Virus record (IMG/VR): IMGVR_UViG_3300045988_183667
Strand: one strand, 5' to 3'
Length of the DNA stretch: 64,000 nt
Source of the DNA: a virus
Part shown: one piece after another, positions 14,506 to 60,702 of the stretch
Position numbering within the stretch: the first letter of the stretch is position 1
How the letters are laid out: each line of letters opens with the position of its first letter
Notes under the pieces: model-generated
Told to the model about the DNA's origin: nothing
Databases searched by the model: none
Seen by the model: the letters and a program-made list of their open reading frames with translations, nothing else
Program-made: the position numbers and the translations under genes

Positions 14506-14532
14506 AGTGAATTCCTCCTTTTGGTCTGATGG

Positions 14533-15400: not shown

Positions 15401-15464
15401 AGGAAATCAGAGTAACGGTGCTCTGACATATCTTTAAAAATACATAGAAAGGATGAGGTGAAGA

Positions 15465-15945: not shown

Positions 15946-17214
15946 ATGGCAAACAAAACAATGAATGACAAAGTTTATATGCAGATCGCAGGTCTGGACA
16001 TCGGAAACGGCTGTGTGAAGGGAACGATCGGTTCCAATGCTGGCGGAGAAACAGATATTGATATCCAGAGCGTTGCGGCAACGAATTATACAGACGCAAT
16101 TGATGAGATGAGGACTCCTTTATCCGAGGTTGAAAGCAAGATTGATGATATTTTCAACTATATGGATGCAACTTTTGAATCTCCTTGTCTGGACGAGACA
16201 GATCGTTATTTCATGGGACAGCATGCAATGGAATCCGGCAATTATCCGATGATTTTTGACGTTGGTGACGGACAGCAGAAGTCAGAACAGCCTCTGTCTT
16301 TTATCCTGACACTTGGTTCCATTGCCGGCAAGGCATTACAGGATGCATGGAATACGACACATGTTCTTCCTGAAGTGATCAATGTGAATGTAAAGGTTGC
16401 TGCACTGGCGCTTCCTATCCAGGAGTACAGACGTTTCCGTGAGAACTATGCAAGTTCCTACAAGAAGGGTGTGCATGTTGTGACGATTCAGACATTCGAG
16501 CAGGATGTCGTAGTTAATATCACATTTGAGAACGTGCAGGTTCTGGCAGAGGGTGCTTCTGCTACCTATGCAATCCGTGCAGGCGGTCCTGCTCTGGCTG
16601 AAAAGCTGATCCAGAACGCAAATGAGGCAAGTGGCCAGCACATTGAGCTGACCGGCGAGGATATTTATGGTGCTAAGGCAACTATGGGTATTGACATTGG
16701 AGAGGGCACAACGAACATGCCAATCTATGATTCTAAGGGTAACTTCAACGCAGATGCGTCCATGTCCATCAACAATGGCTACGGTGTGGTTTTGGATAAT
16801 GCAGTGAAACTTCTGCATAAGAAAGGACTGCATTTTGAGAACCGTAAGGGACTCCAGACATATCTGATGGATGACATGAACATGAAGTTCAAGGATAAGC
16901 AGTATCCTGAAGTTCAGAAAATTGTGGATACCTGCATCGAGAACTTTGCAAAGCAGATCGCTGATATTTACAAGCAGAACATGAAAACGCACAATACGCA
17001 GATCCTGGTTGTTTATGTATACGGCGGTGGTGCAACAGCAATGAAGTATTGTCTGTTCCAGGCTCTTGTGAATAGCACAAGAAAGCTGAACGGTGGCATG
17101 GATGCACAGCCTATCCTGTATTTTGACAATCCGGAAGCAAGAATGCTGAACCGTGATGGTCTTTACATCGCCGCAAAGAGAATCCTTGAGATCATGGGTG
17201 GCAGTCTGAACTAA
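15946..17214 (+). CDS. parM: actin-like segregation ATPase (ParM/StbA/Alp family)
   Basis: Phosphate-1 GLDIGNGCVKG, phosphate-2 GIDIGEGTTN and adenosine motif VYVYGGGATAM are all present. Confidence 0.85.
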   Translation: MANKTMNDKVYMQIAGLDIGNGCVKGTIGSNAGGETDIDIQSVAATNYTDAIDEMRTPLSEVESKIDDIFNYMDATFESPCLDETDRYFMGQHAMESGNYPMIFDVGDGQQKSEQPLSFILTLGSIAGKALQDAWNTTHVLPEVINVNVKVAALALPIQEYRRFRENYASSYKKGVHVVTIQTFEQDVVVNITFENVQVLAEGASATYAIRAGGPALAEKLIQNANEASGQHIELTGEDIYGAKATMGIDIGEGTTNMPIYDSKGNFNADASMSINNGYGVVLDNAVKLLHKKGLHFENRKGLQTYLMDDMNMKFKDKQYPEVQKIVDTCIENFAKQIADIYKQNMKTHNTQILVVYVYGGGATAMKYCLFQALVNSTRKLNGGMDAQPILYFDNPEARMLNRDGLYIAAKRILEIMGGSLN

Positions 17215-17314
17215 GCCAGTTTCGCTTTTTGCTCCTATAATATTTGCCGGCTCCGACACTTTGCCGGGGCTGGCAGACAAAACAAAAAAACTACATATTT
17301 GAAAGGAAATTATC

Positions 17315-18892
17315 ATGGATAATATTTTTACAATTCTCATTCCTGCAATCATTGTGATTGCCGTACTCATCATCATTATGACCGGTTACGTGAAGGCCCC
17401 TGCAGACAAGGCGTTCATTATCTCGGGTCTCCATAAGAAACCGAAGGTTCTGGTTGGCCGTGCCGGCATCAAGATTCCTTTTCTTGAAAGAAAGGATGTC
17501 CTTCTGTTAAAGCAGGTTTCCATTGACATCAAGACGAACGGTTACGTTCCTACACTGGATTTCATTGGCGTTGATATTGATGCTGTAGCGAAGGTGCGTA
17601 TTATGGACACACCTGCCGGTCTGGAACTTGCCGCAAAGAACTTTTTAAACATGGGTGAGAAGCAGATCATCGAAGCCCTTACCGATTCATTACAGGGTAA
17701 CATGCGTGAGATTATCGGTACGATCAGCTTAAAGGAACTGAATACAGACCGTAAGCAGTTCGGTGATCAGGTGCAGCAGAAAGCACAGGTCGATATGAAC
17801 GCTCTCGGTATCGAGATCATTTCTTGCAACATCCAGAGAGTAGATGACGAAAACAAGCTGATCATTGCCCTTGGACAGGACAACATGAGCCAGATCCAGA
17901 AAGATGCGTCCATCGCAAGAGCAAACGCAGAGCGTGACGTTGCCATTGCGGAAGCAAAGGCAAAGAGAGAAGCGAATGATGCAAAGGTCGAGTCCGATAC
18001 CATTATTGCAGAGAAAAACAACGAGCTTGCGATCAAGCAGGCAGAACTGAAGAGACTTTCTGATGTTAAGAAGGCTGAAGCCGATGCTGCATATTCCATT
18101 CAGGAGCAGGAGCAGAGACGTGCGATCGAGACTGCTACCGTGAACGCAGAGATTGCAAAGGCAGAGCGTGAAGCAGAACTGAAGAAACAGGAAGTTGCTG
18201 TACAGGAAGAGACGCTGAACGCACAGATTAGAAAGAAAGCCGAAGCTGACCGTTATGCCGCAGAACAGCAGGCACAGGCAGCACGTTATCAGATGGAGCA
18301 GGCTGCGGAAGCAGACAAATTCAAGAGAATTGCAGAGGCCGAGGCAAGATTACAGGAGCAGCTTAAAGAAGCTGAAGGTATCAAGGCAAAGGGTGAAGCC
18401 GAGGCAAATGCCATTGAGGCAAAAGGTAAAGCAGAAGCTGAAGCCATGGATAAGAAGGCAGAGGCTATGAAGAAATACGGTCAGGCTGCTATGACACAGA
18501 TGATCGTGGAAAGACTTCCTGAGATTGCAAAGGCTGTCGCAGAACCTTTCAACCAGATTGACAAGATTACAATCATTGGCGGTTCCGGTGACGGTGGTGT
18601 CGGTTCCGTAGGTTCTTATGTTCCTCAGGCGCTGGCACAGACCATGGCGGCAATGAAAGAGGCAACCGGCATTGACCTCAAGGATCTGATCGAAGCAAAC
18701 GGCAAGGATGCTAAGATTACGAGAAACGTGAACATCACAGGTGTCGATGGTGCATCCACTCAGCAGGCAGTTGGTCCGGTGGTTGCCGGTGCAATTGCAG
18801 AGGACGGTGGTGCAGCTGAGGTTGCAGCTGCTCTGGAAGCAAGAGGTCTTACGTTCGAGTCTGAGAATGACAAGAAAAACCGTGAGAAATAA
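17315..18892 (+). CDS. flotillin-like SPFH/band-7 protein
   Basis: N-terminal TM helix, an SPFH core (FIISGLHKKPKVLVGRAGIKIPFLERKDVLLL...), and a long EA-rich coiled-coil (AEAEAKGKAEAEA). Confidence 0.85.
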   Translation: MDNIFTILIPAIIVIAVLIIIMTGYVKAPADKAFIISGLHKKPKVLVGRAGIKIPFLERKDVLLLKQVSIDIKTNGYVPTLDFIGVDIDAVAKVRIMDTPAGLELAAKNFLNMGEKQIIEALTDSLQGNMREIIGTISLKELNTDRKQFGDQVQQKAQVDMNALGIEIISCNIQRVDDENKLIIALGQDNMSQIQKDASIARANAERDVAIAEAKAKREANDAKVESDTIIAEKNNELAIKQAELKRLSDVKKAEADAAYSIQEQEQRRAIETATVNAEIAKAEREAELKKQEVAVQEETLNAQIRKKAEADRYAAEQQAQAARYQMEQAAEADKFKRIAEAEARLQEQLKEAEGIKAKGEAEANAIEAKGKAEAEAMDKKAEAMKKYGQAAMTQMIVERLPEIAKAVAEPFNQIDKITIIGGSGDGGVGSVGSYVPQALAQTMAAMKEATGIDLKDLIEANGKDAKITRNVNITGVDGASTQQAVGPVVAGAIAEDGGAAEVAAALEARGLTFESENDKKNREK

Positions 18893-28816: not shown

Positions 28817-28978
28817 CAGAATAATCTGGCAAATTTTATGGAAATCTATTGCAAACAGCAGACATTTATGGTATCCTCAGATACGAATGTGAAACATTTC
28901 TTTCTGTGATTGATGCCGTATGGGGATGCACCGGGTAAAAAATATCTGGTGCATTCTCATTTTTTTTTCGATATTATA

Positions 28979-29007: not shown

Positions 29008-29260
29008 CTAAGTGTTCGAGTGTGGTATTATGCACTCGGACAGGTTTTTATTTCGTCCATTACCTGTGGAGAAAATGTTGCCGTATCCACGGGCTGGAGA
29101 TAATAATAAAGTAGGGTGACCTGAATCAGCCCGAACGTAAACGCCGGAAGTTTTTGCCGGAAGTCTGAACTGTTTAGTCCGGACGATTCAATAACCTGCT
29201 TCAGTCTTTACATATGAGGACTGGAAATTATTATTAAGGTGAGAAAGGAGCATTTGCTAA

Positions 29261-32200
29261 ATGAAGACATTAAGCAACGCAGGTAAGAAAGTAGCCCGTA
29301 GAAGTTTTGCCGGTTTTATGGCAATGCTGATGTGTGCTACAACCCTCGGAACAAATTTCTGGGGACTGGGTTCCAAGGATTCTGAGTCTATTGTCGGCGG
29401 ATTTGAAGCATTCGCAGCAGACAGTGTGACATATGGTCCTTCACAGACCTATTATGATGCCGGTACGCTCGTAATGAACGCTTATTACGACAGTTCCACT
29501 GGAACAAAACTGGCAGAGACATCTGCTAATTATCATGCAACAGACTGGGATGTAACGTATGCATCGTCTTATGTTGCATCAGCGTCACAAAACGGAAACA
29601 AGGGTGTTACTGTGATCAGTACGACTGATATTGCAGATTCTAATAAATACGGTTCCGCTTCCAACGTCGTTGACGGTGGTGATGGAAAGAGAGGTATCAT
29701 GTGCTTCTCTGAGTATCTGGACGCCTTGAACGGCAATTTTAATCCTGGTGATGCAGATTACAAGGCATATGAGAAATCGGTGCCGGATTATGAAGCTCCT
29801 GCCGGAAATGATACGGTTACATATCAATACATGGCAGAAGGTAAGACATATTCCACAGATGACGGTCAGGTAGAGATTAAGTGGACTCTGTTTGCATGGC
29901 CGGATGATCAGAATCTGGATGGTCTTTCTACAGCCGCAATGAAAGCAAAACTGGATACACCGGAAGAGATTAAGACAGAATGGGAAAAAGTAAAACCCAC
30001 AGAGATTACAGGCAACAATAACTCTGTGAAACTGGATGTTCCAGGTGAACTGGTAAGCGATGCCGGTACATGGCAGGATGCTGGAAATACCGGTGCGAAG
30101 GACAATGCTTCTCTATTCTATAAAGGACAGCCTGAGTGGTTTTCCGGAAACCAGGGTTCTTTCGATTCATGGTTTACAGATCATCATGAAAATTATCTGA
30201 TGAATTTAGGACTGTGGACTCGTCTGGAAACTTCTCCTGTAAAGATTACAAAAACAGCCGGAACCGGTGGTTATGTGACTTACGAGGGTAAGCCTGCGGT
30301 AAGTATTGCAATGTTTAAGCCATCCAATACTTCAAGCGTGTATCAGGGTGCTGACGTAAAGACGACTCTTACAGAGGATAATGATGCAGAATTTTTACCA
30401 CTGTATGCTTATCTTGGTGATACTTATGCATCCGCTGATAAACTGTCTGCCATGAAGCTGACTGACATTTTAAGAGGACAGGCGTCTGCTGAAAGAGCAA
30501 CTATTCCTACTTACAATATCAGAAAGCAGCTGTACGCAATGTGGGAGACAACACAGGCTTTTTATCTGAAGAATGCGACTTCTTTGACATGCCGACAGAT
30601 CAGCGATGGTGCGACCGGAGTTTCAAAGACATGGACAAATATCAATGTTACCGGTACAAGACTATATGCAATCGCATCTTATCCTCGAATTGATACTACA
30701 TATGCAGCAGGTAACCAGACCTATGTAAATGCAAGTGCAGAAGGTGCTAAGATCACAGTAATCAATGCATCCGAACAGTGGAACAGCGCGGCTCAAGGTG
30801 GCGAAGCATATGGTTCTTCCGATGGCAAGAATCCTGTATTATTTGTATTCAATGAGAATGATATTTGCGAAGCAAATGGCATCATCCATGCAAATAATAT
30901 TCCGGGACAGGTATTTAACCTGAGTGATATTTATGATGCTTACGGCACAGATCTTAAGCCCACGGGAACAGGAAAAGTAGTTGCTGAAGATATCGCAAAC
31001 ACCATTGTTCCATTTGTGATTCGATCCGATGCTTATTATGATGTAACCGAAGATTATCAGCGAGCAGCAGGCGTTCTTTATGGACGAGTTGATGCATCTA
31101 CGCTTGATACTTCTGCTATTAACAGCAGATTTGCAGGTAAGGTCGCAATCCCTTCCGCAAATGATGAGATCGTAGATACCGTAACTTACAGTGGATTAAA
31201 CGGCGGTGACAGCTATACTCTGGAAGGTGCTGTTTATAAGTCAAATGATAAGACTTTTGCAAGTCCTATTGTACAGACAACTGTGAGCTTTACTGCTCAG
31301 GCAACTACTGGTACGCAGGATGTAGTATTCACAGCATTTAATTCTACTTCCGTTGCTTCTGGTGAGAAGCTGGTTGTAACTGAGGTATTGAAGTCTGCTG
31401 ACGGCACTGTTATCGCAGAACATAAGGATCTGGCAGATGCTGACCAGACGATCGCTTACACAAAGAAGCCTGTTCTTGTGACAAAGGCATCTTTGTCTGA
31501 CGAAGACAAGAAGATCACTGATACGGTAACTTATTTCGGACTGGATGCTTCTGCTGAGTACATCATGACTACGACGGCTTATGATGCTACTACAGGCAGT
31601 ATGTTACCTGACTCCGTAGCAACAGAGTTTACAGCTTCTGATACCGGTAACGGTAAAGTAGATGTTGTTTACGATAAGTTCGATGCCGTTGATCTGGCAG
31701 GCCATAAGCTGGTTATGTATGAATCCGTAGCATTAAAGTCTGCCCCGAACCCAGAAGTTGCTTCTCATAAGGACAAGAATGATGCAGATCAGACTGTAGT
31801 TCTTGGTTCCAACATGGAAATTTCCACAGTCGCAAAGGCCGGTACAGGTTCTAAGTATCTGGATGCTATCGACAGCGAGACAATCGTGGATACCGTAACG
31901 GTAACAGGTCTTAAGGCTTCTGAAAAGTACACAGCGAGAGCAACTCTCTTTGATGTAACCACAGGTGAGCTTGTTACTGACACTTCAAGTAATACGCTTA
32001 CATGGTCTGAGGAGTTTACGACAGACGCTTCCGGTAATGGATCTACAACTGTAACTCTTGCAAATTTTGCTGCAAGCAACAAGGCAGGACATACACTGGT
32101 TGTTTATGAAGAGATTCTGAACGCAAACGGTGTTTCTGTTGCGACACACGCAGACAGTGCAGATGAGCAGCAGACAGTTTCTGTTAAGAAAGCCGGTATC

Positions 32201-33940
32201 ACAACGGTACTTGGCGACGCTGACGGAAAGAAAGACATGGAGTCTTCTGCATCCATGGTATTTAAGGATGCCATCACTTATTCCGGACTGGTTCCCGGCA
32301 ATGAGTATTACATGGTTTCCACTCTGGTAGACAAGGCTAACGGTCAGGTTCTTACAGATACTGCCGGTAATAAGGCAATCGTAACATCTACCGTGTTTAC
32401 AGCCAACAGTACAGGTTCCAACAAGGGTTCCTCATCCTTCACGTTTACCAATATGGCATCTACGATGTCTGGAAAGACCGTTGTTGCATTTAATGACCTG
32501 TACAGAGTGACAGATGGTACTGCATCCGGCACTACGGTTACGGATAACGTAAAGGCTGAACTCGTTGCATCTGAACATGATCTTGCGAATGTAAGCCAGA
32601 CGGTTTCCATTGATGCAACAATTGATGTAACAGACGCTACGATCGATACTGTTGCAAAGGGTGTTGATGGAAGCAAGACTATTCCTCTTGCAACAAACTC
32701 CACAATTAAGGACACCGTAACTTATACAGGTCTGACAGCCGGAAAGACTTATACCTTGTCTGCTGAAGTCTATGACACCAACACAGGTAAGAGAGCTGCC
32801 GGTTATACAAAGGCGCAGTCCATGGACTTCACTGCTGGTGATAATGGCAAGGGTGAGATTGTCATGACGATTGACCTTAATACCATGGAACTTTCCGGTC
32901 ACAAGCTGGTCGTTTATGAGACACTGTCCTTGGGCGACAAGACGGTTGCATCCCACAGGGATTTGACAGATGCTGACCAGACTGTAACGGTAAACGATAC
33001 CTTCCAGGCATCCATTGATACCGTGGCTACAGATAAGGCTACCGGTGGAAAGACACTGATGGCAAGTTCTGATGCAGTGATCCTTGATAAGGTTTCTTAC
33101 GATGGTCTGGATACGAATATGTCTTATAAGCTGACAACGACAGTTTATGACAAGGCTACCGGAGCAAAGTGCGACGGTATTGCAGCTGTTACCACAGAGT
33201 TCAAGCCTTCTGATTCCAAGGGAACTGTTGAGGTAAGCATTCCTGTCGACGGTACGAAGTTCACGGCTGGACAGTCACTCGTTGTATACGAAGAGTTGAC
33301 AGCTACAAGCAAGACTACTGGTACAGACGGTAAGAGTGCTACAAAGACTGTGACTGTGGCAACACATAAGGATATTTCTGATGCAGATCAGACAGTAACA
33401 TTTGTGAAGATGACCACTTACCTTACTGGTGACGGTACATCTGCAAAGACTGTCCATGTTGGATCAGACGCTTATGCGATTGATACAGCATCCTTTACAG
33501 GACTGACACCGAACAGAACCTATGTGATTACCACACAGCTTCTGGATGTGGCTGCAAATTCAGGTGCAGTGACGCTTGATACAAACACATCTGCGAACAA
33601 CACGGCTTCCGGCAATGCCGTTGCAACAAGAACCATGGAGTTTACTCCTACTACAGCAAATGGTTCCATTGCAACACAGATCAATGTCAATACGACAGGT
33701 CTGTCAGGTCATTCCCTTGTTGCCGTAGCAACCGTTACAGATAAGACAACAGGTCAGACTGTTGCGACACACACTGATAAGGCTAATGTCGACCAGACAA
33801 TCACTGTGCAGACCCGTGTGGAAGCACAGACAGGTGTCGGCACGTATGCTTGGATCTTCGGAATTATGGCACTGATCATGCTGGCCGGAGTATCCTCTTA
33901 CGGAATCGGCTTTTACAGTGACAAAAAGAACGGCAGATAA
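29261..33940 (+). CDS. giant sortase-anchored surface adhesin with ≥7 tandem Thr-Gln ester-type repeats
   Basis: Signal peptide. ~95-aa repeats begin with DTVTY(S/T)GL and end with H-x-D-x-x-D-x-(D/E)-Q-T-V (Cpe0147 / VaFE-like signature). The C-terminus carries EAQTG, a hydrophobic segment, and a DKKNGR tail. Confidence 0.85.
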   Translation: MKTLSNAGKKVARRSFAGFMAMLMCATTLGTNFWGLGSKDSESIVGGFEAFAADSVTYGPSQTYYDAGTLVMNAYYDSSTGTKLAETSANYHATDWDVTYASSYVASASQNGNKGVTVISTTDIADSNKYGSASNVVDGGDGKRGIMCFSEYLDALNGNFNPGDADYKAYEKSVPDYEAPAGNDTVTYQYMAEGKTYSTDDGQVEIKWTLFAWPDDQNLDGLSTAAMKAKLDTPEEIKTEWEKVKPTEITGNNNSVKLDVPGELVSDAGTWQDAGNTGAKDNASLFYKGQPEWFSGNQGSFDSWFTDHHENYLMNLGLWTRLETSPVKITKTAGTGGYVTYEGKPAVSIAMFKPSNTSSVYQGADVKTTLTEDNDAEFLPLYAYLGDTYASADKLSAMKLTDILRGQASAERATIPTYNIRKQLYAMWETTQAFYLKNATSLTCRQISDGATGVSKTWTNINVTGTRLYAIASYPRIDTTYAAGNQTYVNASAEGAKITVINASEQWNSAAQGGEAYGSSDGKNPVLFVFNENDICEANGIIHANNIPGQVFNLSDIYDAYGTDLKPTGTGKVVAEDIANTIVPFVIRSDAYYDVTEDYQRAAGVLYGRVDASTLDTSAINSRFAGKVAIPSANDEIVDTVTYSGLNGGDSYTLEGAVYKSNDKTFASPIVQTTVSFTAQATTGTQDVVFTAFNSTSVASGEKLVVTEVLKSADGTVIAEHKDLADADQTIAYTKKPVLVTKASLSDEDKKITDTVTYFGLDASAEYIMTTTAYDATTGSMLPDSVATEFTASDTGNGKVDVVYDKFDAVDLAGHKLVMYESVALKSAPNPEVASHKDKNDADQTVVLGSNMEISTVAKAGTGSKYLDAIDSETIVDTVTVTGLKASEKYTARATLFDVTTGELVTDTSSNTLTWSEEFTTDASGNGSTTVTLANFAASNKAGHTLVVYEEILNANGVSVATHADSADEQQTVSVKKAGITTVLGDADGKKDMESSASMVFKDAITYSGLVPGNEYYMVSTLVDKANGQVLTDTAGNKAIVTSTVFTANSTGSNKGSSSFTFTNMASTMSGKTVVAFNDLYRVTDGTASGTTVTDNVKAELVASEHDLANVSQTVSIDATIDVTDATIDTVAKGVDGSKTIPLATNSTIKDTVTYTGLTAGKTYTLSAEVYDTNTGKRAAGYTKAQSMDFTAGDNGKGEIVMTIDLNTMELSGHKLVVYETLSLGDKTVASHRDLTDADQTVTVNDTFQASIDTVATDKATGGKTLMASSDAVILDKVSYDGLDTNMSYKLTTTVYDKATGAKCDGIAAVTTEFKPSDSKGTVEVSIPVDGTKFTAGQSLVVYEELTATSKTTGTDGKSATKTVTVATHKDISDADQTVTFVKMTTYLTGDGTSAKTVHVGSDAYAIDTASFTGLTPNRTYVITTQLLDVAANSGAVTLDTNTSANNTASGNAVATRTMEFTPTTANGSIATQINVNTTGLSGHSLVAVATVTDKTTGQTVATHTDKANVDQTITVQTRVEAQTGVGTYAWIFGIMALIMLAGVSSYGIGFYSDKKNGR

Positions 33941-33989
33941 GCTGTTCTGATGGAAAAGAGTCTTCCCATTGGCTTTGTTTCTTCTTTGG

Positions 33990-34026
33990 ACACCCGTGCA
34001 GGTAACTGCATGGGTGTTCTTGTGTT
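33990..34026 (+). terminator. rho-independent terminator
   Basis: 12-bp stem ACACCCGUGCAG/CUGCAUGGGUGU (one G-U pair), GTAA loop, then a T-rich tail. Confidence 0.55.
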
Positions 34027-34058
34027 ATGAGTCGCACACTCTTTTTTCAGAAAATATG

Positions 34059-34087
34059 TTGATAAATGAAAAGTTTTAGTGTATAAT
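34059..34087 (+). promoter_or_regulatory. promoter TTGATAAATGAA-17-TGTATAAT (family motif)
   Basis: -35 at 34059..34064, extended -10 at 34080..34087. Confidence 0.6.
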
Positions 34088-34164
34088 CATGTTTGAAATG
34101 TGATTGGCTCTTATATGAGAAAATCTGTATGTTTCAAATTATCAGTAAAGGAAGATGCAAATTT

Positions 34165-35136
34165 ATGGCAAGAACATATAATATCAATCCGCAGCCGGAA
34201 TCACCCGTTGCAGAAGTTTCTGAAAGTGAAAAGAAGAAATTCCCATGGCAGGCAGTCCCTGTCGTGCTCGTGATCGGAGCCGTGGTTGCCGGTACGGCTT
34301 TTGGGGTGGCAAAGCTCCAGGAACATAACGAGGACGTGAAGATCACAAAGACATGGGAAGAGTTTAAAAATGTCGCAGACAGCGCGGAAGGAGAATCCGT
34401 GTCAGAAGTGTCCACAGAAGAGTCAGGTGCAGTGGAACACGGACAGATGTACTCTTCGGATCCGATGAAGCGAGTGATCAACTGGGACGCTGTACATAAT
34501 GTGAACGAAGAGGTTAAATGCTGGATCTATATTCCGCAGACAGAGATTGATTATCCGGTGTTACAGTCAGCGAAGTGGGAAGATAATGAGTATTATTTAA
34601 AGCATGATGTGTATGGTAACAGTTCTGCTGCCGGATCTATCTATATGCCGGCTGAGGTGGAGGGATTTGAAGAGAAAGACATTCATCAGATCATCATCGG
34701 TCATCACATGCGTAACGGAAGCATGTTTTCAGATCTGGTCAAGTATAAAGACAAAAGTTTCTGGGAAGCAACACCGTATATTTATCTTTACTATCCTGAC
34801 AGGACGGAAAAGTGGTTGATTTATTCTCCTTATCATACAACACAGGCAGATGAGATTTATAATATGCCATATGAAGCAGGAACAGTATTATATAAAAATC
34901 TGCTCGATAAGATCGAGGCAAACAAGCCGTATGACACGGCGACGAATGGTCCGACCGTAAGTGCTCCTCTTCTTACACTGACGACATGTGACCGTACTAG
35001 CACGGATAATTCTGCTGGACGTTTTGTCGTAAATGCAAAGCTCGTGGATACTGCTGCATTACAGGCCGGAACAGAGAATTCAATCACAGACAGTTCTTCT
35101 GTTGTATCTGAGAATAGTCAGGAAGGGGTGGAATAA
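34165..35136 (+). CDS. srtB: sortase (class B-like)
   Basis: N-terminal TM anchor, His motif IIIGHH, catalytic TLTTCD, and a conserved Arg in GRFVVNAKL. Confidence 0.85.
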   Translation: MARTYNINPQPESPVAEVSESEKKKFPWQAVPVVLVIGAVVAGTAFGVAKLQEHNEDVKITKTWEEFKNVADSAEGESVSEVSTEESGAVEHGQMYSSDPMKRVINWDAVHNVNEEVKCWIYIPQTEIDYPVLQSAKWEDNEYYLKHDVYGNSSAAGSIYMPAEVEGFEEKDIHQIIIGHHMRNGSMFSDLVKYKDKSFWEATPYIYLYYPDRTEKWLIYSPYHTTQADEIYNMPYEAGTVLYKNLLDKIEANKPYDTATNGPTVSAPLLTLTTCDRTSTDNSAGRFVVNAKLVDTAALQAGTENSITDSSSVVSENSQEGVE

Positions 35137-35138: not shown

Positions 35139-35468
35139 ATGGCACAGGCACCGAACACAACGAGAGTAACAGCAACCATCCCGGATGAGATGCACAAGCA
35201 GCTTTTGTTCTATGCAGCAAAGAAGGGAATTTCTATTAACCAGTATCTTTATGATGCACTGGAACATGCAATCGCTTGGGAGAATCAGGATTATCCACTT
35301 CCAACGATTGAGACAGCAAGACTTGCACAGCTTGTCGATATTGTCAGTGGTGTGAAGTCGGATGTGGAAAACATTCATAAAGTAATTGATTCCGGTTTCA
35401 ATTCCCTGCTGACATTAACAAAAGGTGATAATTATCTCCTGGATGGTTCTGAGGATGATGTAGAATGA
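35139..35468 (+). CDS. RHH-type DNA-binding protein (paralog 1)
   Basis: TRVTATIPDEMHKQLLFYAAKKGISINQYLYDALEHAIAWE has beta-alpha-alpha topology. Confidence 0.55.
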   Translation: MAQAPNTTRVTATIPDEMHKQLLFYAAKKGISINQYLYDALEHAIAWENQDYPLPTIETARLAQLVDIVSGVKSDVENIHKVIDSGFNSLLTLTKGDNYLLDGSEDDVE

Positions 35469-35860
35469 CCGGGGGTGTGGATATGCAGACAGATGAAACA
35501 ATCCGTGTGACAGCGACGCTTCCGCCGGAAATGATGATGCGTGCCGGTTACTGGGCAAAGAAACATGACATGTCGATTAACCAGTATCTTGTCTATGCAC
35601 TGGAACAGTTCATTAAATGGGACGGGGCAGACCATACAAAGTCAACACAGGAAACAGAACGCCTGAACCTGTGCGTAGACACGATAGAGGAGCTTGCCGG
35701 TTATATCCATGGTTTACAGACAGCGATTGATTCCGGGTTTGATGCTTTATCAGAAGCAACCCGTGGGGATAGTGAGTTTTTAAATCATGAGGACGGCAGT
35801 CTTGACAGGATTGACCTGACAGCAAAGACTAAGCGCAAAAAGAGACGCAGGAAGGAGTGA
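35465..35860 (+). CDS. RHH-type DNA-binding protein (paralog 2) with basic KRKKRRRKE tail
   Basis: IRVTATLPPEMMMRAGYWAKKHDMSINQYLVYALEQFIKW is clearly paralogous to the upstream gene. Confidence 0.55.
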   Translation: MTGGVDMQTDETIRVTATLPPEMMMRAGYWAKKHDMSINQYLVYALEQFIKWDGADHTKSTQETERLNLCVDTIEELAGYIHGLQTAIDSGFDALSEATRGDSEFLNHEDGSLDRIDLTAKTKRKKRRRKE

Positions 35861-41038: not shown

Positions 41039-41926
41039 ATGGCAAAGAAATCGTATAAGATTCCTGCTTCTTTGAGCGATAATTATCTGAACATGGAAAT
41101 CGCGCTCCAGACGAAAGACGGTGTAGGTTTAAAACCGTTGCCGGTAAGGGTTATCCTTGCATGGCTGTTTGGATTGCTCGCAGGATTTTACTGTGTTGTG
41201 AATTCCGGCAGTGTTATTGCTCAGGCAAGTATTTTTACAAGGGTGCTGTTCGCCGTTGTGTGGATTGCTTTCCTGTGGGTTATGACGAAAGTTGACCGTT
41301 CCCATAAGATGCAGCTGGAATTGATTCCTGCACTGTTAAGCTATCTGCAGAAGTCAAACAAGTATGTTATCACACGTAGGACAGCGAATGCCGGTCCGTT
41401 CTATTCCATTGTTGGTATCCGGTCAATTGATCCAAAGACAGGACTTGTGGAATACGTGGATGGAACCAGTGCATACTGGTACAGCGTGGTCGGAACGGCT
41501 TCCGTACTTCTGTTCCCGGAAGATCGGGATGCAATCCTTGACAGGGTAAAGGACTTTTATGACAAGATCGGTTCTGATTGTGAGATTATTTTCATGACCA
41601 CAAAGGAATCACAGAAAGTACAACAGCAGACGGCGCATTTGATGGCTCAATACAAAGCACTGACGCCGGAAGTAAGAGAGGACGAGGACGTGAAGGCTCT
41701 TGTCCGTGAACAGTATAAAATCATGACTGAGTTCGTGGGAAAGCGTTTTAAATCCCTGCATCAGTACATGATCATTAAGGGTGACAATGAAGAAGCCTTA
41801 TCAGCAATCAACAACATCGTTATGTCGGAAGTCCGCGGATCTTCTCTGATGCTCAAGCAGTGTACGGCATTATATGAAAAGGACATCGAGAATGTATTGA
41901 AGCTGATTTACGCATCAAATCATTAA
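41039..41926 (+). CDS. T4SS-associated membrane protein (2 TM near N-terminus)
   Basis: Hydrophobic helices RVILAWLFGLLAGFYCVV and VLFAVVWIAFLWVM; it sits between topB and the VirB4-like gene. Confidence 0.5.
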   Translation: MAKKSYKIPASLSDNYLNMEIALQTKDGVGLKPLPVRVILAWLFGLLAGFYCVVNSGSVIAQASIFTRVLFAVVWIAFLWVMTKVDRSHKMQLELIPALLSYLQKSNKYVITRRTANAGPFYSIVGIRSIDPKTGLVEYVDGTSAYWYSVVGTASVLLFPEDRDAILDRVKDFYDKIGSDCEIIFMTTKESQKVQQQTAHLMAQYKALTPEVREDEDVKALVREQYKIMTEFVGKRFKSLHQYMIIKGDNEEALSAINNIVMSEVRGSSLMLKQCTALYEKDIENVLKLIYASNH

Positions 41927-41952: not shown

Positions 41953-43845
41953 ATGATTCGTATGACAAAGGAAGAACGCGCTGCTGCAAAAGCAGAGAAA
42001 AACGCGTTAAGAGAATTCAGACAGTATCCATACCTTTTGGCAATGAAACCAAAGGAAAGGTACATCTTTCACAGTGATTACTTCGATGTCGATGGCCAGG
42101 TAGCAACTGTCCTTAGTTTCTTCCATGTGGACGGAGCGACGGATGGTTATCCGCCTTTTTGGGGTGTCGGACGTATTCCGCAGGGATTGGACAATGATAT
42201 TGTCACAATCTCATTTGAGCAGATTCGCCGCATGTCCAAGGGCTGGGTAGAAAGTCATGAGTCCACAGCAGAGTCCGTGGCTCAGATGAATTCTAACGAG
42301 CAGCAGAATGCCGGTACAAAGACAACGAAGCAGAAATCCAACAGGAAACAGCAGGATCTGGAAGAGATCGCAAGAGAGCTGGGCGATAACGCAGCATACT
42401 TGCAGGTACAGTTCAAGTTGATGGTCAAGGCGCCTACGCTTGAGAAACTGGACAAAGCACTGATCGCAATCGGACGTAGATACATTGATGTCTTCTCCAA
42501 TCTGGATGCAGCACCGCTTATGGGTCAGCAGCGTCAGGAATTGTCATCATTGTTCTTGACAAATGACAGAAAGCTGGGACATCCGTATTACTTCACATCT
42601 CCCGAATTTGCCGGTGATTATTGTCTGGTGACACATGGTATCGAGGACCCGACAGGAGAATATGTCGGCCGTATGTTTGGTGATGTAAACAACTCTGCAG
42701 TGTTGTTTTCTGTAGACGGTTACAAGCATCATGTCTGCATTGGAAATGAGTATTACAATGAGGCCCTCGGACGTATGCATGTATCTGATATGTGGGGTTC
42801 CAAGATCTCACAGAGCTGTCTGCTTCACAATGGACGTGTAGTACATATTGTGCTGGACGGATGTGATCTTGACAAGCTCGGTCCAAAGTTTGAAAATCTT
42901 ACATATAAGCTGGACATGAACTCCGGTGATGTAAACATGTTTGAAATGTTCGGCGAGTTTAAGAATGAGCTGTCGATCTTTGCAACACAGATGCAGAAGC
43001 TGATCCTCATGGCTGAACAGGCGTATGAGACAACAGAATCTGACAGATCCATTATCCGTGGATCACTGGAAGACATTGCGACGCAGTTCTATATTGACAA
43101 CAGAATGTGGTATGAGAACGCAAAGGAACATCAGGACAGGCTGCGTATCATCAATGTACCTCACGAAGAGGTTCCGAAGCTGGAGATGTTTGTATCTTAT
43201 CTGGATACGGCATATAAGAAGTCGATCAGTTCTGATACAAGAGATAATGAGAAGGTACATGCTCTTTCCGTACTGTCAGCAACATTCAAGAATCTGCTGT
43301 CAGCAAACGGTGATCTTTTTAACTGCACGACGAATAAGAATATCGACGGTACGATCAATGGCCGCCGGGTTGTGTATGATTTCTCACAGCTCCGTCGTCG
43401 TGGTGAAGGTGTAGCAATGGCACAGCTTGTTAATATTATTGGTTTTGCCTGTGGCAATCTTGGTAACGGGGATACAATTATCTTCCATGGTGCTGATCAG
43501 ATTGCAAACCGTGTAAAGCAGTATATCATGGATCAGCTGGATGCGTTGTATGCAAAGGGTGGAAGAGCAGTATTCCTTTACAACAACATCGACAAGATGT
43601 TCAATGACAAGGCATTCTCGCATTTTGACAAGGCAGATTATACTGTCCTTGGAACAATGACGAAGAATCAGGTCGTTGATTATCAGAAGGCACTTGGGCA
43701 GACGATTCCCGGTGACCTTGCCGGTCTGGTGACAATCAAGAATGAAGCATTGGCTTATCTGCGCAGGGAATACATGAACGTAGTCTTTGAACAGGATCTG
43801 GCACTTGGTATTAACGGAAACGAAGAGAAGGGAGTAAGAATGTGA
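41953..43845 (+). CDS. VirB4/TraE-like protein apparently lacking a canonical Walker A
   Basis: Its size, its position in the transfer cluster, and a DPTGEY motif (GIEDPTGEY) fit VirB4. I found no GxxGxGK[ST] anywhere in the 630 aa. Confidence 0.4.
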   Translation: MIRMTKEERAAAKAEKNALREFRQYPYLLAMKPKERYIFHSDYFDVDGQVATVLSFFHVDGATDGYPPFWGVGRIPQGLDNDIVTISFEQIRRMSKGWVESHESTAESVAQMNSNEQQNAGTKTTKQKSNRKQQDLEEIARELGDNAAYLQVQFKLMVKAPTLEKLDKALIAIGRRYIDVFSNLDAAPLMGQQRQELSSLFLTNDRKLGHPYYFTSPEFAGDYCLVTHGIEDPTGEYVGRMFGDVNNSAVLFSVDGYKHHVCIGNEYYNEALGRMHVSDMWGSKISQSCLLHNGRVVHIVLDGCDLDKLGPKFENLTYKLDMNSGDVNMFEMFGEFKNELSIFATQMQKLILMAEQAYETTESDRSIIRGSLEDIATQFYIDNRMWYENAKEHQDRLRIINVPHEEVPKLEMFVSYLDTAYKKSISSDTRDNEKVHALSVLSATFKNLLSANGDLFNCTTNKNIDGTINGRRVVYDFSQLRRRGEGVAMAQLVNIIGFACGNLGNGDTIIFHGADQIANRVKQYIMDQLDALYAKGGRAVFLYNNIDKMFNDKAFSHFDKADYTVLGTMTKNQVVDYQKALGQTIPGDLAGLVTIKNEALAYLRREYMNVVFEQDLALGINGNEEKGVRM

Positions 43846-46800
43846 TGAACAGATTTATTCAGAAGAACAAGTTTATACTGATTTTACTCACAATCGTTAT
43901 CTGCCTGTCATGCGCCTATGGTCTGACAGCGAAACTGGATCCAACAGTCAATGCTGCTAAGACAAAGACAAGTTCGACAGATTATTCATGGGCTACGGTA
44001 TCAATGGCCGCAGCACAATATCTTGGAAAGACAGCATCCCCAGATGGATATGGATATGGTGTAGCGGTTCCACCTAGTGGTGAAAATACTGGTTTTGCTG
44101 GTGCTTTTCTTGGATATATGACACCTGGAGAAAATGGTACAGAGTTTTCTGTTGGTGCTATTGAATCAAATACTGTTATATATTCTTATGCAGCTTTAGA
44201 TAATTTAAAGACAATGTTCAATGCTGATGGTAATGTTTGGAGTGATTCTGCAAAAACATATGCAGGTTTTGGGTATGCGTTAACAGCTGCAGGTGTTGAT
44301 GAACCTGTTATTATCGGGCAAACAGCAGATAGTAAACGAAATCTTATCGGTCCAGTCGTATTGATTGTTTTTTTGTTATGTATGGCATTGCCTAAGTTTT
44401 TTGAAATGGTTTTGACATTCTTATCTGTAGCAAATCCATTTAAACTATTTATTGGTCCAGGCAGTGTGTTGAGATCTATTGTTCCGACAATTGATGTAGG
44501 TCCTGGTTTTGATAATCAGAATACGGCTGTACAGGCTGCAATGAGTGGCGCATTGAATACATTGTCAGATGCAGTTACAGGATTATATAACGCATTGTAT
44601 TCTTTGTCATTTTTTGCAATTGTTCCAATTTTGATAGCATTGGCGTTGTTTTCATGGCTTGTACTTAGGAAGTCAGCAGGTTCTGTATTTAAGAATCTTG
44701 CAGTCAAAGTTGTGTTCATTGGTCTTGGTGTGCCTTTAATGCTTGCTTGCTATACAGCGGCTATTGATAGTGTTAAAGATTTTACCATTGGTACTGCATC
44801 GAGTACGCCTATATCTGTTATCACATCTACGTTTTGTGATTATGGTTCTTGGGTGCTTGGCCGAAGTACATATAATTATATGGCACTTCCATCTGATGCT
44901 AATCTGTATGTTGATACGAGTGGTGATACATATGTATATGAACCGTCATCAACCAGTGATAGAAGATTAGTACAGCTTTTGAACAAGAAAGCAAATCCAT
45001 TATTTACATCCGTGACACTAAGTAATGGCGGTACTAATGCAAACAATATAGCAAATGATGATATAACACTTGTTGGTTCTGTTCCAGGAGGTACTAGCTC
45101 CGCAAAAACATCTGCTGTTATCAATTTGTTACAAACATATACAAAAGGCGAATATATTACTGCTAGTAATTTCGCCACGAAACAGCAGGAAGTTTTAATG
45201 AACAAAATCAATAAAGAACACAGTATATCATTTTTCAATCAGAGTTCTAAGTGGGAAAATTTTGAGCCAACACTGGCAGCTGCATTTAACCATGAAATGG
45301 AAGATGGATCATGGGGTGTTGACGTTTCAGAATCTGATGCAAAGACTTTTGCTGAACAACGATTGACAGATAGTGCATCATTAGCCAGAAGAAATATCAG
45401 TAAAGCGGGTCTTAATTTGTTTTATAATTCAGAGACATCACATTTTTCACCTGGTTCATATGAAGGAGAAAACAGGAAGCCTTTCTGTAAGATGGCTACA
45501 TATAATTTGTTATCTTCGACATTTTCAGATACAGCTATTGCTGTTTACAGTACCACAGAATCATCCACAAACCAGGTTCAGTTAGCACACTATTCTGTGT
45601 CTATTGCTGGTCAGGGTTATATGGAATTAGCTTATGTATTTGATGCTGTTGCGATTATGTGTTGTTTAATGGTTCTTGGCTATGGATATGGATTTGCTCT
45701 TCTGTTTGCATGTTTTAAGGGACTGATTCAAATTTTTCCTAAAGTTCTTACAGGTATGATCGGTTCCATGAGAGGTATTGCCGGTTCTGTTGCATTAGTG
45801 GCAGCTTTGATTATTGAAATCATAGGAACATGTATTATGTATTCTCTTGGTACAATGTTCGTTGGCGGTATTTATGAATTGATTGAAAAACCATTAGCAA
45901 CTATTTTGACATCAGTTGCTGATTTGCCACCGCAGGCGGCAGCACTTGTCACAATTGTTGCTTCAGCAATCATAATTATTAAGCTGACTATGACATTGTT
46001 AAAATATCGTACAGCTGTTGTAAAATCTGTTAGTGAAACCGCAACTGGTTTTATCAATAAGTTTATGGAAACAAATGTGGTTGCTCCTAATCTGGAGAGT
46101 AACATGTCTGCCGGCAGTCTTGCATCTATTGGACTTGGTATGGCTATGGTTGGTGCATCTACACCTGCGGGCAGTAAACTGGCAGATAGGGCAAGTGATC
46201 TTACGGATAAAGTAGCAAATGCAGATGCCGATAAGGTTGCTTCAGCAGCTATGAACGGTACAAGTCTTACCGGAGCACATGGTGAAAAATATGCAAGCGC
46301 TGCTGATGCCGAAAAGGCAAAGAATGAAGCTGATATGCACGAAGCTTCATCATCTCTTAGTGCATCTGATACGGGTGGTCATTATAGTAATGGTAATCCA
46401 AGCGGAGCACTTGCCGATGACAGCGAATCTGCTGTGAAGACAACAGATGATGTTGCTGCTGATTATGTAAATGACAACGGGGCTGATTTTGAGAAAGAAA
46501 TTGGTTACTCGTCAGATGATACTGACAATAGTAAGCTGGCTGATAGTAAGAAAGCCGGAGATGATTCAGACATCGATCTTGCTGCTGAAAGAGAAAAGAA
46601 TAGAGAGCTATATGCTGATCGTCATGGTTATACAGGAAAGGTGGAGAATCCTGACGGATCTGTAGATGAGTATGATGATGGGCGTATCGTTGGCCAGTGG
46701 GATAATAACGGTAACAAACTTGTCAATAATAGTACGCAGGAGATTACAGGAACGCAGACTACTGATATTACCAGTGAGAAACAGGGCGAAGCCAATAGTG

Positions 46801-58563: not shown

Positions 58564-60702
58564 ATGGGTTTGAAACAGTCAATAGTTGTAAAAAATGAAT
58601 TTTCATGCAGGACAGCTACTGGCGGGACGAGAGGCGGATCGTTAGACAATTATGTTCTTGATTATATGAGCCGTAATGGCGGTGCCACGGAGATACTCAC
58701 ACCTGTGAAGCTGGACGATAATCAGAATTATATTCTGAATTATATGCTTCGTGATGAAGCAACCGAGTCTGCGGATTCCGTTTCCGGTTTAAAACAGGAT
58801 TTCCGGGATCTGCAGGGTCTTGGCGGAAGGGCGTTCGGATATGGTGAAGTTTCACTGTCTGACAAAAGGCTCCGTGAAGCGGCAAAGGATGTGCAGAAGA
58901 ATTTCAAGGCAGGAAAGACAATCTTAAAGACCGTTATTTCTTTTACGGATGATTATCTGAAAAAGACCGGTATTGTCCGTTCGGATTTCGAGTGCAGTCT
59001 TCCCGGTGATTATCGTGGAAACATTGACCAGCTGAAGTTACGCATGGCAATTATGAATGGTCTTTCCAAAGTGGCGAGAGGCTATGATGACTTGCAGTAT
59101 GTTGGTGTGATACAGGTAGATACGGAGCACGTACACTGCCATCTTGCCATGTTTGACAAAGGTGAAGGAACACGGATGCCGGACGGAACACAGCGCGGCA
59201 AGCTCACGGACCGCATGATGCGGGATTTGCGCCGGGGTGTGGACACTTATCTGGATGAGAAACAGACAGTTAAGATGATGGCCTCTTCTGTCAATTATGA
59301 CAAGCAGAACACGGTCGGATATATCAAGCGTTTTACACATGAAACGATGAACAACAGGGGACTTGCACAATTCATGATCGCCTGTCTCCCGGAAGACCGG
59401 TCGCTCTGGCGTGCCGGTTCCAATGCGTCAGAAATGCGTAAGGCAAATGGTATTGTCCGTGAGTATGTAGAACAGGTGCTTTCCCAGCCGGATTCCGGTT
59501 TTGAGGATGCCATGAAGGCTGTAAGGAAATATGCCGGTTACAGACGTAACCGTGAAGACCTGACAGGACAGTATTATCGTGAGCTCATAAGTTCCAAACA
59601 GAATGAGATTATTACGGATAGTATGAATGCCGTGTATGCTGTGTTGAAACAGATACCGGAAGATGGCTTACAGACACAGACGCCGCTTATGGATGTCATG
59701 AGCCTGCCATACGAGGACGCAGCAGATGTAATAGGAACTGCAATCAGTGAGCCGGATACGGTGGCTGAATTTGGTTTCCGTCTGCGTTCCTACAAGTCAA
59801 GGCTGGATCATCATGCTGCTGAATTTCAGAAGTATCATGCAAACCGTATTGCTTACGAGGAACAGAGGTCTGATCCTGACGAAAGAAGGCGTCCTGTACC
59901 AGAATCTGCGGCTGTGTATGAGTTTTACCTTGTGGAAGAACAGTACAATGAAATGCTGATGAACAAATACCAGTATTTTCTGGATTTTATCCCGCCGGAA
60001 GAAACATATCGTAAAGATCTGGACGAACTGACAAATTATGCGAGACAGATCACAGCATGGCAGCGTATGATAGATGATGCCGATATGCGCCGGATGTCGG
60101 TTGACACGGCAGAACAGTATGGAAAACGGGTGCATAATCTCTCAGACGGGCATCTGATGGTTGTAAACCCAGAGGCGCTGTCCGACAGGGTAAGTGATAT
60201 GAGAAAGCACTATGCCGGTATGCGTGAGGTGTATAGTGCGAAGCTCGCAGCCCTTGGTTTTGAACTGACAGAAGATGACACGTTACAGCGTGGCAGGAAA
60301 TATGATTTTGATGCTGTGAAGGCATTGGATCTGCATCATATGATGTATGATTTCCCTTATGATTTTGCAATTCCGCAGGATCAGTCCCGTTCTTTTGTAG
60401 GAATGGCAGATAAAAGGCTTGCCGCATTCGAGAAGGCAGCCGCTTATCTGAAGGCATCCGGACAGGAAGACATGATAAAAAATCTGTCAGGCTCCGACAT
60501 CCAGTCGCAGCATATTCTGGCTGACAGGTTCCGCAGGACAGATGCCGGTTTTACCACGGCTCGTGAAGAGGCTCTTACAAAAAGACGCCAGTCACGTACC
60601 ATTCGTCTGGATTATGATTTTTATGTTCATCAGGAAGAGGATTTGAAAGAAGATATTAAATCCATTGTAAAAAATACAGTTTCGACCTTGCAATATGAGT
60701 AA
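58564..60702 (+). CDS. MobA/MobL-family (MOBQ-like) conjugative relaxase
   Basis: N-terminal TATGGTRGGSLDNYVLDYMSRNGG (compare the RSF1010 MobA Tyr motif); H-x-H-x-H metal site DTEHVHCHL. Confidence 0.7.
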   Translation: MGLKQSIVVKNEFSCRTATGGTRGGSLDNYVLDYMSRNGGATEILTPVKLDDNQNYILNYMLRDEATESADSVSGLKQDFRDLQGLGGRAFGYGEVSLSDKRLREAAKDVQKNFKAGKTILKTVISFTDDYLKKTGIVRSDFECSLPGDYRGNIDQLKLRMAIMNGLSKVARGYDDLQYVGVIQVDTEHVHCHLAMFDKGEGTRMPDGTQRGKLTDRMMRDLRRGVDTYLDEKQTVKMMASSVNYDKQNTVGYIKRFTHETMNNRGLAQFMIACLPEDRSLWRAGSNASEMRKANGIVREYVEQVLSQPDSGFEDAMKAVRKYAGYRRNREDLTGQYYRELISSKQNEIITDSMNAVYAVLKQIPEDGLQTQTPLMDVMSLPYEDAADVIGTAISEPDTVAEFGFRLRSYKSRLDHHAAEFQKYHANRIAYEEQRSDPDERRRPVPESAAVYEFYLVEEQYNEMLMNKYQYFLDFIPPEETYRKDLDELTNYARQITAWQRMIDDADMRRMSVDTAEQYGKRVHNLSDGHLMVVNPEALSDRVSDMRKHYAGMREVYSAKLAALGFELTEDDTLQRGRKYDFDAVKALDLHHMMYDFPYDFAIPQDQSRSFVGMADKRLAAFEKAAAYLKASGQEDMIKNLSGSDIQSQHILADRFRRTDAGFTTAREEALTKRRQSRTIRLDYDFYVHQEEDLKEDIKSIVKNTVSTLQYE

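Follow-up and report, generated by a model that had tools for sequence, protein, structure and literature searches.

What holds a mobile element's host cell to its surroundings or to another cell, and who supplies the anchoring enzyme, are questions raised by two neighbouring genes in a 64,000-nucleotide (nt) stretch of DNA from the IMG/VR virus record IMGVR_UViG_3300045988_183667 (hereafter, the window). One gene encodes a very large repeat adhesin and the next a sortase. How donor and recipient cells are held together during DNA transfer in Gram-positive gut anaerobes is poorly understood. An earlier note on this DNA, made from its letters alone, had proposed a mating-aggregation module consisting of a Thr–Gln-ester adhesin and its own sortase on a conjugative element. 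By comparison with relatives and known structures we establish the domain identity and catalytic residues of the adhesin, the class of the sortase, the pairing of the two genes and the co-variation of the sorting motif with the enzyme, and we weigh what the pair may do.

Stalk domains and tip of the adhesin

The open reading frame (ORF) at 29261..33940 (+ strand; 4,680 nt, 1559 amino acids (aa)) encodes, by its sequence, a secreted adhesin composed of a predicted signal peptide, an N-terminal region (the 'tip'), a stalk of repeats and a C-terminal sorting signal (Table 1). Seven stretches of the protein match the Pfam family PF18202 (TQ; E = 4e-133, 438 bits against a cut-off of 23.8), and seven match the NCBIfam family NF033903 (VaFE_rpt; E = 2e-116, 383 bits against 24). 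Beyond TQ/VaFE, Pfam and NCBIfam gave no other family, and a search of PDB sequences returned solely ester-bond adhesin domains, with Cpe0147 of Clostridium perfringens at the top (4MKM and 4NI6). With matches far beyond chance, the predicted protein is a Cpe0147-type Thr–Gln ester-bond repeat adhesin, as the earlier note had claimed for a 1559-residue product. That note had counted at least seven repeats of about 95 aa; there are exactly seven, and the span from Thr to Gln is in fact 104–132 aa.

We aligned the seven repeats with the second domain of Cpe0147 and with six orthologues to assign positions. In Cpe0147, T450 is the nucleophile, H572 the base, D577 the acid and Q580 the electrophile, and D480 and E547 are buried acids (PMC12679949). 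The nucleophile Thr of the first strand, the buried Asp equivalent to D480 and the Gln of the last strand are invariant, in all seven repeats and in seven orthologues, and the conserved N-terminal Thr is thus missing from none of the repeats. The base His and the acid Asp are both found in five of the seven, as is the equivalent of E547, and the full catalytic set is present in five; the E547 position is occupied by N1078 in repeat 4 and by A1490 in repeat 7. The ending H-x-D-x-x-D-x-(D/E)-Q previously ascribed to the repeats holds for five of them as H-x-D-x-x-D-x-x-Q and fails for repeat 4, which reads S-E-H-D-L-A-N-V-S-Q, and for repeat 7, which reads H-T-D-K-A-N-V-D-Q. The motif DTVTY, previously taken as the start of each repeat, instead holds the buried Asp; the domain begins 13–22 residues earlier, with the Thr strand. 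T734 was considered as the nucleophile of repeat 2 and dropped, as it varies in orthologues, whereas T741 is invariant.

The two deviating repeats are conserved variants. Among the orthologues of repeat 4, Glu is invariant at the base position (the His next to it in the window varies) and Asn is invariant at both the acid and the E547-equivalent positions. A Glu base paired with an Asn acid is reported as a natural but rare variant from Agathobacter rectalis adhesins and from those of a Lachnospiraceae bacterium; in Cpe0147 itself up to 87% of crosslinking was retained by H572E and 79–86% by D577A and D577H (PMC12679949). The sections consulted gave no data on substitutions of E547. The type represented by repeat 7, which has His as base, Asn as the acid residue and Ala where the buried Glu would be, had no description in the literature consulted. 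Both repeats offer natural tests of the catalytic model for how the ester bond forms.

The tip, by contrast with the stalk, stands apart from known families. Neither Pfam nor NCBIfam yielded a family for it even at E ≤ 1, a profile search of PDB sequences found nothing and tblastn against 72,556 plasmids (PLSDB) found no relative. When 1.84 billion cluster representatives were searched exhaustively with HMMER, one real relative emerged, the orthologue P0122 (49% identity), and word-indexed homologue searches gave in-family proteins only (P0121 and P0122). As far as sequence comparison reaches, the tip is without a detectable relative outside its own element family. Within this fast-evolving region two residues are invariant in an alignment of nine orthologues that extends down to 26% identity: Cys148, in the motif IMC[FYW]x[ED], and Gln600, in D[YQ]QR[AS][AG]G just ahead of TQ domain 1. 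Their conservation suggests a functional pair.

Cys–Gln thioester domains (TEDs) form the tips of Cpe0147-type adhesins and of the conjugation adhesin of plasmid pLS20 (PMC8092201). A TED tip, at which Cys148 and Gln600 hint, was set aside because profile searches and hhalign were negative. PF08341 and TQXA gave no match at E ≤ 1 with the window tip and two distant orthologues, nor at E ≤ 0.01 with any orthologue, and NCBIfam gave no TQXA or TED match to the full-length adhesin at E ≤ 0.01. The TED Cys motif, [YFL]-C-hydrophobic-hydrophilic, was matched in part, with M, Q or S as the residue before the Cys, and the Cys-to-Gln spacing is about 452 aa in the tip compared with about 190 aa in TEDs. 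Alignment of the tip against the TED of an Enterococcus faecalis plasmid VaFE protein (NZ_CP138650.1) gave an hhalign probability of 0.3%. An AlphaFold2 (AF2) model of the tip from a three-row alignment had a predicted local distance difference test (pLDDT) score of 29 and was discarded. From its sequence the tip appears to be an orphan region in which a Cys and a Gln are conserved as a pair, and we do not claim a TED; it is a candidate new binding module.

The sortase and its candidate proline-free signal

The sortase gene begins 224 nt after the adhesin gene. Its start is the ATG at 34165, 10 nt downstream of a AAAGGAAG Shine–Dalgarno sequence, giving the 323 aa called in the orthologue L001; the TTG at 34093 was rejected as the start. 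From N- to C-terminus the protein consists of a conserved cytoplasmic stretch, a single membrane helix (approximately aa 27–50), a linker, the catalytic domain and an acidic tail. Pfam assigns it the sortase domain PF04203 (E = 4e-13), and its best NCBIfam model is TIGR03064 (SrtB). The motifs GHHM, TLTTC and GRF are present, and H180, C275 and R286 are invariant in 31 members of the clade to which the enzyme belongs. A profile of this clade matched sortases in the PDB that are all of class B: SrtB of Bacillus anthracis, Clostridioides difficile, C. perfringens, Listeria and Staphylococcus aureus, Spy0129 of Streptococcus pyogenes and the pneumococcal type II pilus sortase. An AF2 model of the window sortase (pLDDT 80.7 overall and >90 across the catalytic domain) gave, in Foldseek, a top 19 consisting entirely of class B enzymes (E = 1e-18 to 1e-13), with classes E, A and C next at approximately 1e-8, an E-value gap of approximately 1e5. 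On profile and model evidence, the enzyme is a class B sortase, as the earlier note had supposed from the TLTTC, GHH and Arg motifs, albeit a divergent one and not an equivalog of the characterised SrtB.

The solved clostridial and Bacillus SrtB structures (C. difficile CD2718, 4UX7 and 5GYJ; C. perfringens, 5B23; B. anthracis, 1RZ2) superpose on the model with TM-scores of 0.73–0.89 relative to the targets and a root mean squared deviation of 2.3–3.4 Å. They share its His-Cys-Arg residues and N-terminal membrane anchor, but are only 26–34% identical to it, and the window sortase, unlike them, is borne by a mobile element and appears to have a single dedicated substrate. Two further features of the clade are a conserved cytoplasmic N-terminal motif, M-A-(R)-R-x-Y (window 34165–34300), and, in its distant members, a C-terminal tail past the catalytic domain with the conserved sequence YYDxYxIEYNGD.

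In the adhesin, the candidate pentapeptide EAQTG lies eight residues past the last catalytic Gln and is followed by 28 mostly hydrophobic residues and then DKKNGR. There is no LPxT[GASN], NPxTN or xPxTG in the whole adhesin and no PF00746 match. A motif scan of the adhesin recovered what the earlier note had described, namely the absence of LPxTG, the hydrophobic segment and the DKKNGR tail. Taken by itself the pentapeptide has little meaning, since 'xxxTG' is found at 24 places in a sequence so rich in Thr and Gly; it is position and conservation that count. Among window ORFs of at least 100 aa, the adhesin alone has a tripartite end (pentapeptide, hydrophobic segment and basic tail), and EAQTG, earlier named as the sole candidate, is the only credible sorting pentapeptide. 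The sequence VQTRVEAQTG is unchanged in orthologues whose sortases are 57–94% identical, although the last 38 aa (the pentapeptide, the two residues before it, the membrane segment and the tail) are merely 34–47% identical in the same orthologues. More distant members of the element family have TVDTG, WVNTG, NVKTG, TVRTG, DVNTG or TVQTG in place of EAQTG. The consensus over seven distinct in-clade versions is x-[A/V]-x-T-G, with Pro in none. The likeness to the clostridial (S/P)PxTG signal drawn in the earlier note does not hold, the absence of Pro being the distinguishing feature.

We then compared metagenomic contigs encoding members of the sortase clade, judging the pairing where upstream sequence sufficed (loci L001, L002, L004–L014 and L018–L020). 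In every such locus a TQ-repeat protein of 1534 to >4100 aa is encoded upstream of the sortase, either directly or with a few inserted genes between (L002 and L007), and it is the sole ORF of the locus with a sortase-type tripartite end. The pair is conserved as a unit across the element family, which supports the dedicated sortase that had been claimed from the window alone. For an outgroup we used 73 loci (L021–L093) with ordinary gut class B sortases, 27–35% identical. Near these, approximately 64 of approximately 67 candidate substrates have Pro at the corresponding position (SPKTG 50, APQTG 6, APNTG 3, VPNTG 3, LPKTG 1, SPKTA 1), and a simple motif scan found the TQ catalytic motif in none of them. 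Since in-clade ends read x[AV]xTG and outgroup ends SPKTG, APQTG or VPNTG, the loss of Pro tracks this sortase clade in the sequences compared, which supports a dedicated, co-evolved enzyme–substrate pair with shifted specificity. Sortase positions that separate clade from outgroup cluster in the block YLYYPDRTEKW, in the loop that follows (D229 and P235) and at G285 beside the catalytic Arg; they are candidates only.

Four distant members (L011, 1–8446; L019, 2–9589; L020, 872–9655; L018, 3–6815) encode substrates of 2900 to >4100 aa. SpaA/CnaB-type domains are added before the TQ stalk in these substrates, and the x-V-x-T-G end is retained.

Known systems and the host element

The tandem Ig-like domains with Thr/His/Asp/Gln ester-bond machinery are common to the window adhesin, Cpe0147 and the VaFE/TQ 'TIE' adhesins. 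VaFE adhesins, such as the 1344-aa protein of the E. faecalis conjugative plasmid NZ_CP138650.1, also share the layout of signal peptide, tip, stalk and C-terminal sorting signal, together with a very short linker from the last TQ domain to the sorting motif. The E. faecalis protein comprises a TED (YCVE motif and Pfam TED match), CnaB/SpaA, six TQ domains and LPKTG, and no sortase is adjacent. By contrast with such LPKTG comparators, which are served by a host sortase, the window adhesin has no detectable TED, ends in EAQTG and is accompanied by the element's own sortase. In PLSDB, 83 plasmids have an annotated VaFE protein, and 24 of these plasmids are typed as conjugative or mobilizable.

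Like the window, the Firmicute plasmids pCW3, pCS1, pLS20 and pCF10 encode a surface adhesin, located in their transfer region or next to it. Two of them add a sortase: on pCW3 it is of class D (SrtD) and accompanied by CnaC, and on pCS1 srtB is accompanied by CnaB. For these systems a contribution to mating has been proposed or shown (PMC8225981, PMC5770547, PMC8092201). PrgB of pCF10 has LPxTG and depends on host SrtA, and its resemblance to the window adhesin is a functional analogy only; Pfam found no domain of the PrgB polymer-adhesin type (GbpC-like) in the tip, and the adhesin contains no LPxTG. In the pLS20 TIE adhesin the TED is of class II and the stalk is built from CnaB domains; no sortase is coupled to it (PMC8092201). 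The SrtB of C. difficile (Cd-SrtB) likewise acts on non-LPxTG signals ending in TG (PMC4155245), but its (S/P)PxTG has the Pro that is absent here. The NVQTG of C. difficile CbpA, a proposed class B signal, does fit x-V-x-T-G, although CbpA is a collagen-binding and not a TQ-repeat protein. That a Gram-positive transfer element may carry an adhesin, and sometimes a sortase, is thus an established idea. Particular to the window are a TQ stalk without a detectable TED, the orphan tip, two conserved non-canonical ester domains and a Pro-free signal that co-varies with an element-borne sortase clade. In the literature consulted on Gram-positive conjugation plasmids with adhesins or sortases, the combination of a TQ stalk with a Pro-free signal is not described.

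Genes on the + strand run from approximately 16 to 62 kb. They encode a ParM/ALP-like actin, an SPFH/flotillin protein, a UvrD-like helicase and DUF2130, then the adhesin and the sortase, and onward a TopB-like topoisomerase, proteins of 295, 630, 1297 and 1182 aa and a MobL relaxase. Between the sortase and the block that leads to the topoisomerase lie two small genes, the first of which has an orthologue in L005 with a weak ribbon-helix-helix match. The 295-aa ORF (41039–41926) has a weak match to VirB4_plasma (1.3e-8, well under the cut-off), restricted to the N-terminal third of the model. For the 630-aa ORF that follows it (41953–43845), Pfam, NCBIfam and PDB gave no relative, nor does it contain a Walker A motif; it is the most conserved backbone protein (92–99% identical where the sortase is 57–94%). 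The 1297-aa protein (43842–47735) is polytopic, with membrane segments predicted at about eight places, and matched no family, and the 1182-aa protein (49883–53431) has a weak lysozyme-like domain; these two are plausible VirB6-like and cell-wall-hydrolase parts of a very divergent transfer apparatus.

The same backbone occurs on contigs of 36–100 kb, and more distant versions on contigs of approximately 300–400 kb; a PLSDB megablast gave no close annotated relative. The contigs ERR14047365_4202 and CALAWD010000072/73 are almost identical to the element. In every family member the adhesin holds the same position, between the helicase/DUF2130 genes and the sortase–topoisomerase block. A phage origin was rejected, as there is no tRNA in the window and no phage structural family among the Pfam matches (PHROGs were not searched). 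From its gene content the element is plasmid-like, mobilisable and possibly conjugative. The nearest named genome is a metagenome-assembled genome (MAG) of an uncultured Lachnospiraceae bacterium, which agrees with the variant type of repeat 4. In the human gut this family is a major carrier of mobile genes.

Against four orthologues, identity is 50–87% for the tip, 61–94% for the stalk and 57–94% for the sortase, compared with 75–98% for the topoisomerase, 86–100% for the 295-aa protein and 92–99% for the 630-aa protein. Evolution is faster in the surface module than in the transfer backbone, and fastest in the tip, as expected of an exposed adhesin.

Promoter- and terminator-like sites were called by consensus scans only (Table 1). 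The adhesin ATG is preceded at 8 nt by an AAAGGAG Shine–Dalgarno sequence.

Table 1 Features of the adhesin–sortase locus and selected window genes. Residues of the TQ domains are listed in the order Thr nucleophile, D480 equivalent, E547 equivalent, base, acid, Gln.
Feature	Coordinates	Strand	Details
Terminator-like hairpin	28920..28960	+	18-bp stem and T8; upstream of adhesin gene
Promoter-like site	29207..29234	+	TTTACA-16-TATTAT, 10/12; ahead of adhesin gene
Adhesin gene	29261..33940	+	Signal peptide, orphan tip, seven TQ ester-bond domains, sorting signal
Predicted signal peptide	29261..29416	+	aa 1–52; basic n-region, hydrophobic core, AFA|AD cleavage-type site; read by eye
Orphan tip	29417..31093	+	aa 53–611, ~560 aa; invariant Cys148 (29702–29704) and Gln600 (31058–31060)
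TQ domain 1	31097..31459	+	T617, D639, E708, H721, D726, Q729; canonical
TQ domain 2	31469..31804	+	T741, D754, E821, H836, D841, Q844; canonical, first loop short
TQ domain 3	31814..32185	+	T856, D877, E950, H963, D968, Q971; canonical
TQ domain 4	32192..32611	+	T982, D1003, N1078, E1105 (base position), N1110 (acid position), Q1113; conserved variant
TQ domain 5	32636..32992	+	T1130, D1151, E1220, H1232, D1237, Q1240; canonical
TQ domain 6	33008..33403	+	T1254, D1276, E1344, H1369, D1374, Q1377; canonical
TQ domain 7	33404..33808	+	T1386, D1408, A1490 (replaces buried Glu), H1504, N1509, Q1512; conserved variant
Candidate sortase pentapeptide EAQTG	33821..33835	+	aa 1521–1525; predicted cleavage T1524/G1525
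Hydrophobic membrane segment and charged tail	33836..33937	+	VGTYAWIFGIMALIMLAGVSSYGIGFYS-DKKNGR; directly after EAQTG
Terminator-like hairpin	33988..34019	+	14-bp stem, 8 G-C pairs, weak T tract; 48 nt past adhesin stop
Promoter-like site	34059..34087	+	TTGATA-17-TATAAT, 11/12, best of region; ahead of sortase gene
Class B sortase gene	34165..35136	+	323 aa; H180 (34702–34704), C275 (34987–34989), R286 (35020–35022)
Two small genes	35139..35860	+	109 and 131 aa; within 2 nt of sortase; syntenic in all relatives
MobL-family relaxase gene	58564..60702	+	Pfam PF18555, E = 1e-51; only clear DNA-transfer gene in window

Outside the locus, coding strand and AT skew switch within a gene-free region at 14100–15900, just upstream of the ParM-like gene. 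This region contains two copies (14911 and 15131) of a 17-nt near-palindrome, ATGTATA[C/G]GAAATACAT, as well as a direct repeat of 22 nt (14786 and 15147); it may serve as an origin or a centromere. The ParM/ALP-like actin gene and the SPFH/flotillin-family gene after it (15946–18892) are an unusual pair for a plasmid-like element. In the left, minus-strand block, the ORF at 2840–3544 (−) has a DUF1281_C/Api92-like ferredoxin-like domain (E = 6e-17), and the other seven minus-strand ORFs scanned there had no Pfam match at E ≤ 0.001.

Proposed function of the pair

We consider it probable that the pair works as a whole in the following manner. The signal peptide would export the adhesin, and the seven Ig-like TQ domains would fold and, most or all of them, lock by a spontaneous Thr–Gln ester bond, giving a rigid, force-resistant stalk of approximately 900 aa that keeps the 560-aa tip off the cell. 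Held by the membrane segment and basic tail at its C-terminus, the adhesin precursor would stay in the membrane, where the membrane-anchored sortase, made from the next transcription unit, would cut between Thr1524 and Gly1525 and transfer the adhesin to a peptidoglycan precursor. Having co-evolved with the Pro-free x-[A/V]-x-T-G signal, the sortase clade would provide the element with its own anchoring enzyme for one substrate and remove the need for host sortases. The pair belongs to the conserved backbone of a plasmid-like element, bearing a relaxase, of gut Lachnospiraceae. Its likeliest role is adhesion, from cell to cell or from cell to surface, to the benefit of the element, for example by steadying donor–recipient contact. 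The ester bonds themselves, cleavage at EAQTG, wall anchoring and any part in mating are inferred.

Several observations weigh against this reading. The E547-equivalent acid is lost from repeats 4 and 7, which may therefore form no crosslink. The sortase scores 125.3 bits with TIGR03064, below the SrtB equivalog cut-off of 153.75. The NVQTG of CbpA, the sole published Pro-free class B candidate, was left uncleaved by Cd-SrtB in vitro (PMC4155245, PMC5118464), and for this reason we rejected it as a validated precedent. Adhesin and sortase are neighbours but probably not part of one transcript, judging from the sites between them. The element, called conjugative in the earlier note, does encode the MobL relaxase, but no ATPase or coupling protein of a type IV secretion system was recognised among the window's large ORFs with Pfam, NCBIfam and PDB. 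The assignment of the host to gut Lachnospiraceae rests on MAG binning only and is weak. Finally, inactivation of the class B srtB of pCS1-1 had little effect on conjugation (PMC5770547).

The last of these findings bears on a different explanation, in which the anchored pair is host-colonisation cargo that binds mucus, plant fibre or host cells and has no role in DNA transfer. We regard this as possible, though on the doubtful side. Characterised TQ/TIE adhesins, Cpe0147 and that of Mobiluncus among them, have been discussed as adhering to a host or a surface (PMC12679949, PMC10619420), the adhesin gene has promoter-like and terminator-like signals of its own, and the divergence of the tip (50–87% identity against 75–99% for the backbone) fits any adhesin under diversifying selection. 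Evolutionary rates do not, however, discriminate between a mating and a colonisation role, and cargo usually lies in variable regions, whereas the adhesin has a fixed backbone position in every family member. Precedents point both ways: against the pCS1-1 result stand pCW3, in which SrtD is needed for efficient transfer (cited in PMC8225981), and pLS20, in which the TIE adhesin is required for conjugation in liquid (PMC8092201). The term 'mating-aggregation adhesin' used in the earlier note goes beyond the evidence.

Two other explanations concern the sortase itself, and both seem to us very improbable. The enzyme might be a pilus polymerase of the Spy0129 or pneumococcal type II kind, joining adhesins head to tail into a fibre instead of anchoring them to the wall. 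Substrates of pilus-type class B sortases also carry non-LPxTG signals, such as xVPTG, and the pilus-assembling class B enzymes 3PSQ and 4Y4Q are among the structural matches; however, anchoring-type SrtB matches better in Foldseek (E = 1e-18 against 1e-14), each locus has one substrate gene, no minor pilin and no second sortase, and length is already provided by 7 to >11 tandem stalk domains in a single chain. No pilin-motif lysine was identified, though none was rigorously searched for. Alternatively, EAQTG might not be a sortase site at all, with the C-terminal helix keeping the adhesin membrane-bound and a sortase that serves host proteins or is a relic, a scarcely more credible arrangement. 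With xxxTG so frequent in the adhesin, one copy near the C-terminus is unsurprising, and this explanation also accords with the uncleaved NVQTG and with a pLS20 adhesin that is independent of any sortase. It is at odds with the recurrence of [AV]xTG at the same spot before the hydrophobic segment in seven versions, while the flanking segment diverges freely, and with a catalytic triad invariant in 31 sortases and a strict pairing. Anchoring at EAQTG by the neighbouring sortase remains the reading that we prefer.

Rather speculatively, the Pro-free switch in specificity, unused by host sortases, might constitute a private display channel, and the tip with Cys148 and Gln600 might be a new covalent or recipient-recognising domain. 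If so, the sortase would also be an orthogonal enzyme for protein ligation. The x-[A/V]-x-T-G signal is a testable extension of class B sortase specificity that bears on the question of NVQTG in C. difficile. For the element family, carrying an adhesin together with its matching sortase would mean independence of the host's anchoring machinery, and could widen the host range.

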